Of a stretch of DNA of 64,000 nucleotides, positions 10,352 to 57,143 are shown in pieces. How positions within the stretch are numbered: the stretch's first letter is position 1; the number at the start of each line of letters is the position of its first letter. Where the stretch lies: sequence record PQ349265.1. The stretch is one strand, 5' to 3'. The stretch is from Escherichia phage CJY920. The notes beneath the pieces were generated by a model. The model did not search any database, was not told the origin of the DNA, and saw only the letters and a program-made list of their open reading frames with translations. Position numbers and translations under genes: made by a program.

Positions 10352-10512
10352 ACAGAGATATGACGTTAGAAGAGGCCAAGGCTAAAGCAAATGAAGCATT
10401 GGATTTGCTTCTTAAAATTGGCAGTAAAATGATGGAAGAAAATGAGAAATATATCCAGGAAAACAAAATTCCTGACGGCCCATTAGTAGGCAAGAGGAAA
10501 TCGCATGATTGA
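10348..10512 (+). CDS. hypothetical protein, 54 aa
   Basis: ATG overlapping previous stop (ATGA); not in ORF table. Confidence 0.3.
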
Positions 10513-10974
10513 AGTAGCAAAACATTATTCAATAGAATTTATGTCTAAAGAAGGTAAATCAGTAAATACACTTGATAAAAAGTGCTCATTAATTATTCCT
10601 TTAGCAGAAAATCCGGTATTTTAATTAAAGATATAAAAGAAAGAAAATATCCAGAAAATGTTATTCTAATTATAAAGCATACTGAAGATATTTTGCAGAA
10701 TACTGATTCACCATTTTCTTCTTCTGAAGATTTAACTATTAAAGGCTATAAAAGAGCTCATGAATATGGTCTTTTTGACCTGTTTGAAGACGATAAAGTT
10801 AAATTAGCGAGTCAACCTTTTAAAAGTAAAACATTCATTATTGAAGATATTAAAGATATAAATGCATTCGTTAAGATGGTCTGGGCTCATTTTGATGTTG
10901 GACTACGCTGGAGAATGTCCGAAGAAGAAAGAAAGATTATTGAAGCTAATCGTCAATTTGGTTTTTATCGCTAG
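10505..10974 (+). CDS. hypothetical protein apparently interrupted by a -1 frameshift near 10577-10582
   Basis: 39-codon ATG-initiated ORF (10505..10624) overlaps a 130-codon ORF lacking ATG/SD (10582..10974). Confidence 0.35.
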
Positions 10975-11176: not shown

Positions 11177-11208
11177 GTTTACTTTTTCCTTTCTAACGAT
11201 GATATGAT
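11177..11208 (+). promoter_or_regulatory. early promoter
   Basis: gtttactttttcctttctaacgatgatatgat. Confidence 0.45.
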
Positions 11209-11234
11209 AGCTTCTGAAGTATATGGAGGCTATC

Positions 11235-11859
11235 ATGATTATTAATCCTGCAGATGTTGAACAGTTATCTATAAAAGCTGAAAGTGTCGATTTTCAATAT
11301 GATATGTATAAAAAGGTCTGTGAAAAATTTACTGACTTTGAACAGTTCAGTTCTTTGGCAATGTATGGAAGCCAAAAAGAATGAAGCTCTTCATCGGCAG
11401 TTGAATAAAATCATTAAAAAGCATTTAACTGAATCACCTTATCAGTTATATCGTGGTATATCAAAATCGACAAAAGAGCTCATTAAAGATTTACAAGTTG
11501 GAGAAGTGTTTTCAACGAACAGGGTAGATTCATTTACTACTAGTTTGCACACAGCGTGCGGTTTTTCTTATGTTGAGTATTTCACTGAAATAATATTTCG
11601 CTTAAAAACTGACAAAGCTTTTAATTATTCTGACCATATCAGCGATATTATACTTTCTTCTCCTAACACTGAGTTTAAGTATACATATGAAGATACTGAT
11701 GGATTAGATTCAGAACGTACTGATAACTTAATGATGATTGTGCGTGAACAAGAATGGATGATTCCAATTGGAAAGTATAAAATAACTTCTATTTCAAAAG
11801 AAAAATTACACGATTCATTTGGAACATTTAAAGTGTATGATATTGAGGTAGTTGAATGA
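11235..11859 (+). CDS. modB: ModB ADP-ribosyltransferase, reading frame interrupted by +1 frameshift near 11350-11357
   Basis: R (LYRG), S-x-S and E-x-E (EQEWMIP) ART motifs; N-terminal 41 codons are in a different frame and resemble ModA N-terminus. Confidence 0.6.
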
Positions 11860-12458
11860 AATATTCAGCAATGCAATTAAAAGATTTTAAAATCAAATCA
11901 ATGGATGCATCGGTGCGTGCTTCTATTCGTGAAGAATTACTTTCTGAAGGATTTAATTTATCCGAAATTGAACTTTTAATTCATTGTATTACTAATAAGC
12001 CAGACGATCATTCTTGGTTAAATGAAATAATCAAATCTCGTTTGGTTCCAAACGATAAACCTCTTTGGAGAGGTGTTCCAGTTGAGACTAAGCAAGTGTT
12101 AAATCAAGGAATTGATATTATTACATTTGATAAAGTAGTATCAGCTTCATATGATAAAAATATAGCTCTACATTTTGCTTCTGGATTAGAATACAATACA
12201 CAAGTTATTTTTGAATTCAAAGCTCCTATGGTATTTAATTTTCAGGAGTATGCTATAAAAGCTCTACGTTGTAAAGAATACAGTCCGAGTTTTAAGTTTC
12301 CAGATAGTCATCGCTATCGTAATATGGAATTAGTTTCAGATGAACAAGAAGTAATGATACCAGCTGGAAGTGTATTTAGAATTGCAGATAGATATGAGTA
12401 TAAAAAGTATTCAACATACACTATCTATACTCTTGATTTTGAAGGATTTAATCTATAA
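11856..12458 (+). CDS. modA: ModA ADP-ribosyltransferase, 200 aa
   Basis: ART motifs LWRG, SAS, EQEVMIP; paralog of adjacent modB; length as T4 ModA. Confidence 0.75.
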   Translation: MKYSAMQLKDFKIKSMDASVRASIREELLSEGFNLSEIELLIHCITNKPDDHSWLNEIIKSRLVPNDKPLWRGVPVETKQVLNQGIDIITFDKVVSASYDKNIALHFASGLEYNTQVIFEFKAPMVFNFQEYAIKALRCKEYSPSFKFPDSHRYRNMELVSDEQEVMIPAGSVFRIADRYEYKKYSTYTIYTLDFEGFNL

Positions 12459-19710: not shown

Positions 19711-21264
19711 GTGATGATTAAGAATGAAATTAAAATTCTGAGCGATATTGAACATATCAAAAAGCGTAGCGGCATGTATATTGGCTCTTCTGCTAATGAA
19801 ATGCATGAGCGCTTTCTGTTTGGTAAATGGGAAAGTGTTCAGTATGTACCTGGTCTTGTTAAGCTTATTGATGAAATTATCGATAACTCAGTAGATGAAG
19901 GTATTCGTACTAAGTTTAAATTCGCAAATAAAATTAGTGTTACTATTAAAAACAATCAAGTAACAGTTGAAGATAACGGTCGCGGTATTCCACAGGCGAT
20001 GGTTAAAACACCTACTGGTGAAGAAATTCCTGGTCCTGTTGCTGCATGGACTATTCCAAAAGCAGGTGGTAACTTTGGTGATGATAAAGAACGCGTCACT
20101 GGCGGTATGAATGGTGTTGGTTCTAGTTTGACAAACATTTTTTCTGTGATGTTTGTCGGTGAAACTGGTGATGGTCAAAATAATATTGTAGTTCGTTGTT
20201 CAAATGGCATGGAAAATAAATCATGGGAAACTATTCCAGGAAAATGGAAAGGAACTCGTGTTACTTTCATTCCTGATTTTATGTCATTTGAAACTAATGA
20301 GCTGTCCCAAGTTTATCTTGACATTACACTAGATCGTCTCCAGACACTTGCAGTAGTTTATCCTGATATTCAATTTACCTTTAATGGTAAAAAGGTTCAG
20401 GGCAATTTTAAGAAATATGCACGCCAATATGATGAGCATGCTATCGTTCAAGAACAAGAAAATTGCTCTATTGCGGTTGGTCGTTCACCGGATGGTTTTC
20501 GTCAATTAACTTATGTGAATAACATTCACACTAAGAATGGTGGCCATCACATTGACTGTGTTATGGATGATATTTGTGAAGACCTTATTCCACAAATCAA
20601 ACGTAAGTTCAAAATTGATGTGACTAAAGCACGCGTTAAAGAATGTTTGACTATCGTTATGTTTGTCCGTGATATGAAAAACATGCGATTTGATTCTCAA
20701 ACTAAAGAGCGTTTGACTTCTCCATTTGGTGAAATCCGTAGTCATATTCAACTTGATGCTAAAAAGATTTCACGTGCTATTCTAAATAATGAAGCAATTC
20801 TAATGCCGATTATTGAAGCTGCTTTGGCTCGTAAATTGGCGGCAGAAAAAGCAGCAGAAACTAAAGCAGCTAAAAAGGCTTCTAAAGCTAAGGTTCATAA
20901 ACATATTAAAGCGAATCTTTGTGGTAAAGATGCTGATACTACTCTTTTCTTGACTGAGGGTGATTCGGCTATCGGATATCTTATTGATGTTCGTGATAAA
21001 GAACTTCACGGTGGTTATCCATTACGTGGTAAAGTTCTCAACAGTTGGGGTATGTCATATGCTGACATACTTAAAAACAAAGAACTGTTTGATATTTGCG
21101 CAATCACTGGATTAGTTCTCGGTGAAAAGGCGTTTGAAGAAAAAGAAGATGGCGAGTGGTTTACTTTCGAACTAAATGGCGATACAATTATCGTAAATGA
21201 AAATGATGAAGTACAGATTAATGGTAAATGGATAACAGTAGGTGAATTACGAAAAAATCTATAA
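19711..21264 (+). CDS. 39: gp39 DNA topoisomerase II large subunit (GyrB-like ATPase)
   Basis: GHKL ATPase motifs (EIIDNSVDE, GLHG-like), Toprim; ends without the C-terminal part encoded by gene 60. Confidence 0.93.
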   Translation: MMIKNEIKILSDIEHIKKRSGMYIGSSANEMHERFLFGKWESVQYVPGLVKLIDEIIDNSVDEGIRTKFKFANKISVTIKNNQVTVEDNGRGIPQAMVKTPTGEEIPGPVAAWTIPKAGGNFGDDKERVTGGMNGVGSSLTNIFSVMFVGETGDGQNNIVVRCSNGMENKSWETIPGKWKGTRVTFIPDFMSFETNELSQVYLDITLDRLQTLAVVYPDIQFTFNGKKVQGNFKKYARQYDEHAIVQEQENCSIAVGRSPDGFRQLTYVNNIHTKNGGHHIDCVMDDICEDLIPQIKRKFKIDVTKARVKECLTIVMFVRDMKNMRFDSQTKERLTSPFGEIRSHIQLDAKKISRAILNNEAILMPIIEAALARKLAAEKAAETKAAKKASKAKVHKHIKANLCGKDADTTLFLTEGDSAIGYLIDVRDKELHGGYPLRGKVLNSWGMSYADILKNKELFDICAITGLVLGEKAFEEKEDGEWFTFELNGDTIIVNENDEVQINGKWITVGELRKNL

Positions 21265-22060
21265 TGACTTAATAGTGCGGGGTAAAACCCGCGTTTCTAA
21301 ATTTAAGGGTGAAATTCATCATATCCTTCCAAGATCAATGGGAGGTTCTGATGATAAAGAAAATTTGGTGAAACTGACTTTTCGTGAACATTTTTTAGCA
21401 CATTTTCTACTATATAAAATTCATCGTAATCGTGAAATGGCATATGCGATGAATAGAATGTTAAACACTGAAAAATATTTACGTTCTAGTAAATTATATG
21501 AAATTGCTAGAATTTACCATCAAAGAGCAGTATCTGAATGGTCAAAAAACTTTATGAAAGATAAAGTTTTAATGAGAAGTATTAAATCGGGTAAATGCGC
21601 CTTATTAATTAAAGGATCATTTAACCCAAAGGAATGGTGCGGTGTTAATAAAGGTGTTAAGCTTCCTGGAATTAAAGGCATGACATGCTTTAAAAATGAA
21701 AAAGGCGAAGTTTTTCGTCTTCATGTTAATGATCCACGCATTAAAGCTGAAAAATTAGTTGGTATTGGAAATACTGTTGCTGCTACTGCAAAAGCAGCTG
21801 AACTTGAAAAAGCGAAACCATGGTATAATAAATCAGCGACAAATCCAGAGGCTGTAAAATTAATACCAAATTTATATGAATGGTACGTCACGAAATATGA
21901 CCCCGATCATTATAAACGAACGGGAGTTGCTAAATGGAAATCAGTTAATAATATAACTGTGAATTCAAAATTATTCGGCCGAGCATTTAATGAATTTAAA
22001 CGCGGTTGGATTCCTGATGAAAAGTTCTATGAGGTGTATAATGAAATTTGTAAAAATTGA
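21242..22060 (+). CDS. mobA: HNH homing endonuclease (MobA-like) inserted between genes 39 and 60
   Basis: HNH motif EIHHILPRSMGGSDDKENLVKLTFREHFLAH; overlaps 39 stop and 60 start. Confidence 0.7.
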   Translation: MNYEKIYNDLIVRGKTRVSKFKGEIHHILPRSMGGSDDKENLVKLTFREHFLAHFLLYKIHRNREMAYAMNRMLNTEKYLRSSKLYEIARIYHQRAVSEWSKNFMKDKVLMRSIKSGKCALLIKGSFNPKEWCGVNKGVKLPGIKGMTCFKNEKGEVFRLHVNDPRIKAEKLVGIGNTVAATAKAAELEKAKPWYNKSATNPEAVKLIPNLYEWYVTKYDPDHYKRTGVAKWKSVNNITVNSKLFGRAFNEFKRGWIPDEKFYEVYNEICKN

Positions 22061-22573
22061 TTCTTCTAGCGTTGATATGAAAAAATATAAATTGCAGAAC
22101 AATGTTCGTCGTTCTATTAAATCCTCTTCAATGAACTATGCGAATGTCGCTATTATGACAGACGCAGATCACGATGGATAGCCTTCGGGCTATCTATAGA
22201 AATACCTCATAATTAAGAGATTATTGGATTAGGTTCTATTTATCCTTCTCTGCTTGGATTTTTTAGTAATTGGCCAGAACTGTTTGAGCAAGGACGAATT
22301 CGCTTTGTCAAAACTCCTGTAATCATCGCTCAGGTTGGTAAAAAACAAGAATGGTTTTATACAGTCGCTGAATATGAGAGTGCTAAAGATGCTCTACCTA
22401 AACATAGTATTCGATACATCAAGGGATTGGGCTCACTTCAGCGGGATGAATATAAAGAAATGATTCAAAACCCTGTGTACGACGTAGTTAAACTTCCTGA
22501 AAATTGGAAAGAACTATTTGAAATGCTCATGGGTAACGACCCTGAACTCCGTAAAGATTGGATGCTAGGATAA
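22041..22573 (+). CDS. 60: gp60 topoisomerase II subunit, translated across a 50-nt bypass (codons 1-46 = 22041..22178, resumes 22229..22573; 160 aa)
   Basis: ANVAIMTDADHDG then UAG; downstream frame LGSIYPSLLGFFSNWPELF... continues the protein; identical layout to T4 gene 60. Confidence 0.9.
22179..22228 (+). other. gene 60 translational bypass (hop) coding gap, 50 nt
   Basis: Take-off GGA 22176-22178, UAG stop, hairpin ggatagccttcgggctatc, landing GGA 22226-22228. Confidence 0.9.
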
Positions 22574-23370
22574 TGAATTATCGTAAAATTTATGATAAAC
22601 TTATCGCTGCGGCTAAAAACCGCAGCACTATTCCTAATTATACTGAAACTCACCATATTTTGCCTAAATCTATGGGCGGGAGTAATGCTAAATCAAATCT
22701 AGTTAAAATGACCCCTAGAGAGCATTTTATCGCCCATTTATTGCTTTATAAAATTCATAAGAACCGTTCTATGCTTATGGCTATTAGAGCTTTTTACATG
22801 GGAGCTAGAAATTCTAGAGATTATGATTGGCTTAAACAAGAATTCTCTAAAGAGCACTCTAGATTTATGAAAGAATGGATTGCTAAAAATGGCAACCCAT
22901 TTAAAGGTAAAAAACATACTAAAGCAACAAGAGAATTAATGTCACATATTGCTTCACAACGTATAGGCGAATTAAATCCATTTTATGGTAAAACTCATAC
23001 GCAAGAAGCAATAGATAAAATAATACAGGCTAACAAGTTATCTTGGGAGAATGGGCGAAAAGCACCTGTAAAAACAAAAGAACACCAGGATAAAATAACT
23101 AAATCAAGAATGGAAACATTTAAAACAAAAGGATTTAAACCATACACTCCTAGGTCAGAAGAAACTAAAGCTAAGACTAGAGAGTTGTATAAATCTAAAT
23201 ATGAAAGAAGGCCTATAAGAATCACAAGTGTAAAAACAGGCGAAACTATTGATTTTAACTATCTTTATGAATTAAGGGAGTATTTAGATATAGGGTCTTC
23301 TAATATATTGAAAGCATTAAATAATCCTAACAGAACCTGCAAAGGTTATAAAATGTGTTGGATGTCCTAA
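22573..23370 (+). CDS. second HNH homing endonuclease with NUMOD3-like repeats, 265 aa
   Basis: ETHHILPKSMGGSNAKSNLVKMTPREHFIAH; repeats NPFKGKKHTKATRELMS / NPFYGKTHTQEAIDKI; ATG overlaps gene 60 stop. Confidence 0.7.
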   Translation: MNYRKIYDKLIAAAKNRSTIPNYTETHHILPKSMGGSNAKSNLVKMTPREHFIAHLLLYKIHKNRSMLMAIRAFYMGARNSRDYDWLKQEFSKEHSRFMKEWIAKNGNPFKGKKHTKATRELMSHIASQRIGELNPFYGKTHTQEAIDKIIQANKLSWENGRKAPVKTKEHQDKITKSRMETFKTKGFKPYTPRSEETKAKTRELYKSKYERRPIRITSVKTGETIDFNYLYELREYLDIGSSNILKALNNPNRTCKGYKMCWMS

Positions 23371-48797: not shown

Positions 48798-50738
<1,941 letters not shown>

Positions 50739-55656: not shown

Positions 55657-57143
55657 TGAGTACAGTTTTTAATACTAAACAGGTCGATGTTTTAAAAGAA
55701 CCTATGTTTTTTGGTTCAGGTCTTGGTATTGCGCGTTATGATATTCAACGGCATCGAGTATTTGAAGAACTTATTGAACGTTCGCTCTCGTTTTTCTGGC
55801 GTCCGGAAGAAGTAAACTTGATGATGGATGCTGCACAGTTTAATAAGCTTCCTCAGTATCAACAAAATATTTTTACTAATAATCTGAAGTATCAATCATT
55901 ACTTGATAGTATTCAAGGTCGTGCGCCGTCTGCTGTACTTATGCCATTGCTTTCAGACCCAAGCCTTGATACATGGGTTGCTACATGGACTTTTAGTGAA
56001 ACTATTCACAGTCGTTCATATACTCATATCATGCGAAATCTTTATACTGATCCATCGAAGGTATTTGATGAGATTGTACTAGATGAAGCTATCATGAAAC
56101 GTGCTGAATCTATCGGTCGCTATTATGATGATGTTCTGACTAAAACCCGTGAATGGGAAAATGCTAAAGAATTTACAGAACTAGCTAAAGAATCTCCTGA
56201 TGCTGTTTTTCGTTTAAATCGAGCTATTAAACAAGAAGCCGAAGCTAAACGTGCTTTAATGAAATCTCTTTACCTCTGTTTGCATGTTATCAACGCATTG
56301 GAAGCTATTCGTTTTTATGTATCTTTCGCGTAAAATGCGCCTTTAAGCAGTAATGCTTATCGAAAACTCCTTTAATTGCTGGAAAATCCAGAAATGGAAA
56401 ACTAGCAGCCAAGGTTTTGCTTGCACCTTTAATTAGTATCATATTATAAATATGATTATACTTTTAAGAGGATGCACAATTGCAAAGCAAGGTTCAACGA
56501 CTAGTCTTCGGACGTAGGGTCAAGCGACTCGAAATGGGGAGAATCCCTCTGGGATTGTGATATAGTCTGGTCTGCATAGTAATATGTAGCAGTTCATAAG
56601 AGAACGGGTTGAGAATTAGCGAGCTCAATCGAACATAACGGTACCTTTAACTTCCATAAGAACATGGAAATCATGGAAGGTAATGCCAAGATTATGAAGT
56701 TCATTGCTCGTGATGAACAGCTTCACCTTAAGGGTACCCAATATATTATTCGTCAACTTCAATCCGGTACTGATGGTGATGAATGGGTTAAAATTGCTCA
56801 AGAGTGTGAACAAGAAGCAGTTGATATTTTCATGGAAGTTAACCGTCAAGAAAAAGACTGGGCAGTTCATTTATTTAAAGATGGTGATGTTCCTGGATTA
56901 AATACAAATAGCATGTGGAGCTTTATTGATTACTTAACTGTATCTCGTATGAAACAGTGTGGTCTTCCATGCCCAATTACCGATGCTCCGGTTAAACATC
57001 CATATCCTTGGATTCGTGAATACCTTAATTCTGATAATGTTCAATCCGCGCCACAAGAAGTAGAACTATCATCTTACCTTGTAGCACAGATTGATAATGA
57101 TGTTGATGATAAAGTTATGATGAGTTTTAAAAAATATTTTTAA
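55656..57143 (+). CDS. nrdB: NrdB ribonucleotide reductase small subunit, split: exon1 55656..56331, intron 56332..56640, exon2 56641..57143
   Basis: Junction ...FYVSFA-C-TFNFHKNMEIMEGNAK restores frame (U + GU = Cys codon). Confidence 0.9.
56332..56640 (+). ncRNA. group I self-splicing intron in nrdB, 309 nt, no internal ORF
   Basis: Core gtagggtcaagcgactcgaaa and 3' end aacataacg shared with the td intron. Confidence 0.8.

Follow-up and report, generated by a model that had tools for sequence, protein, structure and literature searches.

In the sequence record of Escherichia phage CJY920, a single extra T splits the ADP-ribosyltransferase gene modB between two reading frames

The gene encoding the ADP-ribosyltransferase ModB is broken in the sequence record of Escherichia phage CJY920 (PQ349265.1) by the insertion of one T after codon 37. 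The stretch of this record that was analyzed here, 64,000 nucleotides long and referred to below as the window, covers the early region of a T4-like phage (Tequatrovirus), in which the disrupted modB (11235-11859, + strand) is written as a 49-codon ORF and an ORF in the +1 frame containing the entire catalytic part. We put at about evens the chance that modB is a freshly inactivated gene, in effect a pseudogene at birth. An artefact of the record is a serious rival, to which we give somewhat under an even chance.

A single extra T divides modB between two frames

The genes of the early region lie on the + strand in the order mrh, srh, modA.4, modA.3, modA.2, modB, modA, srd, dda.1 and dda. An earlier note on this DNA had described two ORFs at 11235..11384 and 11284..11859, in frames differing by +1, and both are present as claimed. 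In a tblastn search, the ModB ORF of a reference genome (G28) matched 11223-11345 in frame 3 (E 1.8e-20) and 11311-11856 in frame 1 (E 3.3e-114). This division of the ModB match over two frames indicates one gene written in two frames and excludes a chance overlap. Alignment with phages IME537, ESh16 and T4_ev240, and later with 19 relatives, identified the lesion as one extra T at 11346/11347, GAACAG[T]TCAGTTC. At this point the window reads GAACAGTTCAGTTC and every aligned relative reads GAACAGTCAGTTC, so that the alignments place TT at 11346..11347 (+ strand) against a single T in every relative, one of the two Ts breaking the frame. Removal of base 11346 restored a 624-nt ORF of 207 codons, and the extra T is thus the sole frame defect. 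The earlier note had placed the frameshift in a T-rich run at 11350-11357 (gttctttgg); the frameshift itself is borne out, with its position corrected to 4-10 nt further upstream, in CAG-T-TCA. The modB insertion is a change from T to TT and not a change in the length of a long homopolymer. It turns the quasi-repeat CAGT-CAGTT into a perfect tandem CAGTT-CAGTT and breaks a small palindrome or hairpin of the relatives, ACTGAC-N8-GTCAGT (detected in the relative L017).

Codons 1-37 of modB remain in the native frame (11235..11345, + strand) and match the ModB N-terminus of relatives, and codons 38-207 follow in the +1 frame (11347..11859, + strand), matching PHROG 832 and ending at a TGA at 11857-11859. 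Read from its ATG, the truncated frame (11235..11384, + strand) encodes 49 aa, consisting of 37 ModB residues followed by FSSLAMYGSQKE, and stops at TGA 11382-11384. This short ORF had previously been described as resembling the N-terminus of ModA, a label that does not hold, since it is the N-terminus of ModB itself, with 37 native and 12 out-of-frame residues. The longer, 191-aa ORF (11284..11859, + strand, +1 with respect to 11235..11384) has a GTG start that is purely mechanical. The suggestion that 11284 might be the genuine start in related phages found no support, the position being a start codon in no relative; relatives use the ATG corresponding to 11235, with one annotation at the upstream ATG corresponding to 11223. 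The downstream modA (11856..12458, + strand; 200 aa, PHROG 832) is intact, with a GAGG of its own 7 nt upstream, and a protein identical to the window ModA was present in 322 blocks of the protein collection. The modA ATG overlaps the modB stop codon (ATGA, 11856-11859), which suggests translational coupling.

The repaired protein resembles Mod ADP-ribosyltransferases in sequence and, judged from a homologue model, in fold

The repaired ModB matched PHROG 832, "RNA polymerase ADP-ribosylase", with an E value of 4.8e-42 (2.2e-37 for the 191-aa ORF), and shared 95% identity with a PF26816 (Mod_ADP_RT) protein, P0002. The local Pfam-A and NCBIfam profile libraries gave no match for ModA or ModB; the PF26816 assignment was taken from precomputed tables, and PHROGs were used for the profile search. 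As the earlier note had proposed, joining the two frames gives a 207-aa protein with the catalytic arginine in place. Specifically, the residues of the R-S-ExE catalytic signature were all present in the +1-frame ORF and did not vary across the aligned ModB and ModA homologues, with R73/G74 at 11452-11457, S111 at 11566-11568, E171 at 11746-11748 and E173 at 11752-11754 (all on the + strand). R73 is the residue that was mutated for the inactivation of T4 ModB (PMC10468400).

A PDB sequence search with ModB found no relative, and the fold was addressed via AF2 and Foldseek. The AF2 model of the 95%-identical homologue (pLDDT 88.7, pTM 0.83) retrieved Plx2A, iota Ia, Certhrax, C3 and Vis from the PDB with E values of 6e-7 to 1e-5. 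The C3/iota-toxin-like ART fold, including an N-terminal helical lobe, is found in this homologue model and not in the broken window product. Four N-terminal helices (residues 5-14, 18-31, 34-45 and 50-62) precede the beta core of the model, and the position of the frameshift corresponds to helix 3, within the nearly invariant EQS.LWQCME motif. All homologues found were 204-207 aa long. By sequence, catalytic residues and modeled fold, the window modB is a predicted member of the Mod ADP-ribosyltransferase family; what it lacks is a continuous ORF of about 200-207 codons for the whole domain. The lesion has the form of a frameshift pseudogene, with +1 T after codon 37 and truncation before R73, S111 and the ExE motif.

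Two further indels lie close to the modB insertion

A second lesion was evident in modA.3 (10505..10974, + strand), an Mrh-family (PF24070-type) paralogue whose frame is broken by the loss of one base, an A, at about 10616, where the window reads CCGG-TAT in the alignment and the relatives CCGGATAT. The tblastn match of modA.3 was split over frames 2 and 1, and its fragments, ORFs of 39 aa and 130 aa, covered positions 4-35 and 42-165 of the phrog_1234 profile. A 30-mer of the window carrying the deletion had 0 matches in the phage collection. Two non-synonymous substitutions in modA.3 (10730 and 10956) were also seen, each found in 0/18 aligned relatives.

The third indel lies in a promoter-like site of early type upstream of modB (11178..11208, + strand), comprising a -35 element TTTACT (11178-11183), a spacer (11184-11202) and TGn with a -10 element TATGAT (11203-11208). 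In relatives this site reads TTTACT-17 nt-TG-n-TATGAT, which has the architecture of T4 early promoters (PMC2988021). In the window, two extra Ts in the intergenic T-run at 11183-11187 (T3 to T5) give a spacer of 19 nt versus 17. In a promoter scan, the relative L017 scored TTTACT-17-TATGAT with TG, and the window, with its 19-nt spacer, gave no call at the modB proximal site. The extra TT was absent from 19/19 aligned relatives, and the best of 582 phage matches to the 91-nt promoter stretch were identical at 89/91 positions, differing only by the two Ts.

Spanning the -10 element and the modB start codon, an RNA hairpin (11198..11243, + strand; MFE -18.2 kcal/mol, z = -4.4 versus shuffles) pairs the Shine-Dalgarno sequence GGAGG (11225-11229) and the AUG (11235-11237) with a 5' arm reaching into the -10 hexamer. 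It was flagged by a terminator scan in both the window and L017, and the aligned relatives have the same sequence. The hairpin probably gates translation of modB. Judged from its anatomy, the overlap of the 5' arm with the -10 hexamer would leave transcripts from the proximal promoter without the arm and with a free ribosome-binding site, unlike read-through transcripts, so that a weaker proximal promoter would lower ModB translation further.

Taken together, the three window-specific indels (about 10616, 11183-84 and 11346) fall within 731 bp. Under a uniform model, our calculation gave P about 4e-4 for three events clustered this tightly, so that the cluster calls for a local cause. The insertion in modB and the deletion in modA.3 both lie outside homopolymer runs and are therefore not typical platform errors.

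The remainder of the window is intact in comparison with the reference genome, 151 of whose ORFs matched full length in a single frame. No frameshift or internal stop was found in the other real genes of the 64-kb window compared with the G28 ORFs, and the internal stops that were listed in this comparison all fell within short antisense or alternative-frame ORFs of the reference. A generally poor sequence quality was considered and rejected on these grounds and because the 64 kb contain no ambiguous bases.

The sole other multi-frame match to G28 was the T4-type arrangement of gene 39, a mobA-like gene and gene 60. In this split topoisomerase region (19711-22564), gene 39 (517 aa, 19711-21264) is followed by an ORF for an HNH mobA-like homing endonuclease (21242-22060) and by gene 60 with its 50-nt translational bypass (take-off GGA at 22176-78, UAG, gap 22179-22228, landing GGA at 22226-28); in most relatives, G28 among them, the gene is fused (605 aa). 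Gene 60 is directly followed by a second ORF that resembles HNH-type endonucleases (270 aa, TTG start, 22558-23370) and shares about 30-35% identity with homing endonucleases of G28. Two group I introns (Rfam RF00028) were also detected, at 50163-50378 (75.7 bits) and 56313-56589 (71.7 bits). The latter is placed where the nrdB match to G28 stops, like the T4 nrdB intron, and the former is, from its position, probably the td intron.

The insertion is found in none of the relatives

An 801-nt query around the modB lesion matched 502 phage records at 90-98.4% identity, with 100% identity in 0. A comparison with modB of related phages had been proposed as a check in the earlier note, and when it was run the insertion was found in 0 of about 500 phage records. 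Specifically, a 30-mer with the extra T had 0 matches in 50,697 phage records, and the same 30-mer without the T had 69 exact matches. The extra-T pattern was found 0 times in IMG/VR, a weak negative because the wild-type modB site occurs in only 3 IMG/VR contigs, and the patterns of the modA.3 and promoter indels were not found there either. The weight of the uniqueness is carried by the phage collection and by exact-protein look-ups. Among 10 contigs encoding exactly the ModA of the window, the insertion was present in 0, and all 10 had an intact 207-aa modB and a 156-aa modA.3. In an exact look-up, the truncated products, including the 49-aa peptide, were absent from a collection of about 15 billion proteins, and the exact Srh, Mrh.1 and repaired ModA.3 of the window had no match in the protein collections searched. 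The literature searched contained no mention of a modB frameshift.

The repaired 207-aa ModB was letter-for-letter identical to a protein (P0001) encoded in the Logan assemblies SRR33881021 and SRR33880972. These contigs share only about 97% DNA identity with the window and thus belong to a different phage. Their modB codons showed 11 synonymous and 0 non-synonymous differences from the window, and the synonymous to non-synonymous ratios against other relatives (for example 6:2 and 9:2) were typical of purifying selection. These codon differences show that modB was fully constrained until the insertion, which is therefore either very recent or not real.

Discussion

The earlier note had offered three causes for the split frame, namely a sequencing error, a recent inactivating mutation or recoding; the first two are both still standing and the third is not. 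If modB has been freshly inactivated, replication slippage at the quasi-repeat could have inserted the one T after codon 37, and the phage would stay viable since modB is non-essential. In T4, a mutant whose ModB is catalytically dead remains viable, and its burst is smaller (PMC10468400). As the loss of ModB activity lowers the burst of T4, selection on standard hosts should act mildly against a knock-out. With two of the indels affecting modB, one in its promoter and one in its coding region, and the third located two ORFs upstream, the pattern looks like selection or decay of a unit. The insertion is a singleton, and the collections searched yielded no independent assembly of this phage. 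On the reading of a fresh inactivation, it and its two companions would belong to the phage itself and not to this one record alone.

The main rival to a fresh inactivation is an artefact of sequencing, assembly or finishing, the phage itself having an intact modB, modA.3 and promoter and the record one low-quality or low-coverage stretch. Such a stretch could stem from a single gap-closing read or from the cloning or PCR amplification of DNA that is toxic in E. coli. Expression of ModB and ModA in E. coli is lethal or toxic (PMC3014915; PMC2988021), which makes the region prone to mutated clones and to poor coverage in clone-based sequencing, and also in PCR-based finishing. An artefact would agree with the restriction of all three indels to the window among about 500 relatives, and with their span of about 730 bp, roughly one Sanger read or low-coverage patch, next to about 150 other ORFs without a frame error. 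The perfect conservation of the repaired modB, with 0 non-synonymous differences from L017, fits a pure record error equally well. However, two of the three indels are outside homopolymers, the window has 0 ambiguous bases and nothing else in it points to poor quality, and real natural modB frameshifts are known, as in T2. The promoter and coding region of one toxic gene have both been hit, which resembles selection more than noise, although selection among clones would have the same effect.

Should the indels be present in the phage, ribosomes starting at the AUG at 11235 would make 37 ModB and 12 wrong residues and stop at 11382. The ART core in the +1 frame (R73, S111 and E171-x-E173) has no ribosome-binding site of its own and would not be made, or would be made in traces only. 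Trace amounts of a core product might arise via re-initiation at M44 or spontaneous slippage on A-runs. Expression of modB is probably hit again by the 19-nt spacer and by the folding of read-through transcripts into the hairpin over the Shine-Dalgarno sequence and AUG. The upstream modA.3 is frameshifted as well. The modA gene, which keeps its own Shine-Dalgarno sequence (GAGG), would follow a stretch of about 470 nt left untranslated and may be exposed to Rho-dependent polarity, the principle of which is taken from PMC2988021.

A second alternative is that the phage makes a shortened but active ADP-ribosyltransferase from an internal start, either M44 at 11365 or the GTG at 11284, which we regard as very unlikely. 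R73, S111 and E171-x-E173 are all retained in the downstream ORF, and M44 (11365-11367), the first in-frame ATG of modB codons 38-207, is followed 17 nt downstream by the stop of frame 0 (11382). T4 genes are known in which translation re-initiates close to a stop codon. Against this, no Shine-Dalgarno sequence precedes the GTG at 11284, the ATG at 11299 or the ATG at 11365; the homologues are all 204-207 aa in length; and no such protein is on record in the 15-billion-protein collection. On the P0002 model, a product starting at M44 would have neither helices 1-3 nor the nearly invariant E36, L40 and C43 of the EQS.LWQCME motif, and would probably be inactive.

Recoding, by programmed +1 ribosomal frameshifting or transcriptional slippage yielding a regulated, low level of full-length ModB that tunes the dose of a toxic enzyme, is scarcely credible and was rejected, as the junction has no efficient +1 shift site, the RNA around it folds no better than shuffles and the arrangement is not shared by relatives. 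The frames do overlap from 11284 to 11384, low-level expression of a toxic product is conceivable, and A-runs that might permit +1 re-pairing of tRNA-Lys are present in TAT AAA AAG (11304-11312) and in CAA AAA GAA immediately ahead of the stop. However, no relative searched carries the insertion, and the two-frame arrangement is not conserved, every relative examined having a single-frame gene and the lesions of T2 and HY01 being elsewhere. At CAG TTC AGT, where a shift would give back the native sequence, +1 re-pairing is impossible for any P-site tRNA. The A-runs have neither a hungry, slow or stop codon in the A site nor an upstream Shine-Dalgarno-like stimulator of the prfB type (each frame-0 codon within 11284-11384 inspected). 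A shift at the A-runs would replace about 11 residues, and one at the downstream run would destroy the EQS.LWQCME motif. Runs of A5 are too short for efficient transcriptional slippage. The fold of the 81-nt segment 11320-11400 was not significant (z = -1.75), and an Rfam scan at the modB junction gave no family match. The likeness to the +1 frameshifting of prfB (RF2) is one of geometry only, a short frame-0 ORF ending in UGA that overlaps a long +1 ORF; unlike prfB, modB has no shift codon of the CUU-UGA type, no upstream Shine-Dalgarno stimulator and no conservation in homologues. The same window contains the T4 gene 60 bypass 11 kb away, with its GGA take-off, UAG, stem-loop and GGA landing (22176-22228), and none of these signals is found in modB.

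Returning to a modB that is either freshly inactivated or misrecorded, the practical consequence for annotation is that the gene needs either a flag as disrupted or pseudo or a corrected record, and that it should be annotated neither as a 191-aa GTG-initiated protein nor as a case of recoding.

Comparison with modB of T4, T2/SV76 and HY01

ModB of T4 (207 aa) is an NAD-dependent arginine ADP-ribosyltransferase that also "RNAylates" rS1 and rL2, two proteins of the ribosome. The window resembles T4 in its modA.3-modA.2-modB-modA-srd locus, in the overlap of the modB stop with the modA start and, after repair, in about 96% ModB identity, with R73/G74, S and E-x-E at the same positions as in T4 ModB (PMC10468400). 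Unlike in T4, codon 37 is followed by a frame break and the promoter spacer has 2 additional nt, and the gene as written cannot yield the 207-aa enzyme.

Frame-broken modB alleles were found in 2 phages, T2 and HY01, among about 39 Tequatrovirus rows in a spread sample of the tblastn matches. In T2/SV76, a 2-nt deletion (CATAT--GCG) at about codon 135, upstream of E-x-E, was present in 7/7 records. These include PV648364, PV958097, LC348380 (T2) and OM339528 (SV76) and were deposited separately; as to origin, two are without a country, one is from K-12 and three are from a USA study with BW25113. Given seven separately deposited records, the deletion is certainly real and fixed. It splits modB into ORFs of 142 aa and 42 aa, annotated in LC348380 as a 142-aa "ModB" and a 42-aa hypothetical protein, and from its sequence T2 appears to be a natural ModB-null phage. 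No paper remarking on the T2 deletion was found. The idea that a T2 "escape mutant" record reflects escape from a defence by loss of modB was dropped because the deletion is in every T2 record; the PinQ paper, possibly the source of that record, lists other mutations. In HY01 (KF925357.1, locus 1301-1922), a 1-nt deletion near codon 185 (ACTTC-ATTTC) alters the C-terminus of ModB, and this could be real or an error.

A broader reading of these lesions is that modB has been knocked out repeatedly and independently in T-even phages because ModB is a liability on some hosts, for instance by triggering an NAD-linked or ribosome-surveillance defence or by serving as its substrate; the three lesions clustered here would then be a footprint of positive selection that silenced a modA.3-modB unit. 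We consider this unlikely. The recurrent independent lesions do hint that the gene is conditionally dispensable or costly, and they imply no new mechanism.

The finding is an ordinary one, an accessory, non-essential gene that is either a pseudogene at birth or misrecorded, and its closest case is modB of T2. If the inactivation is true, the phage would, like T2, be a T-even phage naturally null for ModB and would offer a ready-made control for ModB-dependent ADP-ribosylation and RNAylation of ribosomal proteins. In both the window and T2/SV76, modB is split by a small indel and modA is intact; the window has a 1-nt insertion at codon 38, seen once, whereas T2 has a 2-nt deletion and an intact modA.3.
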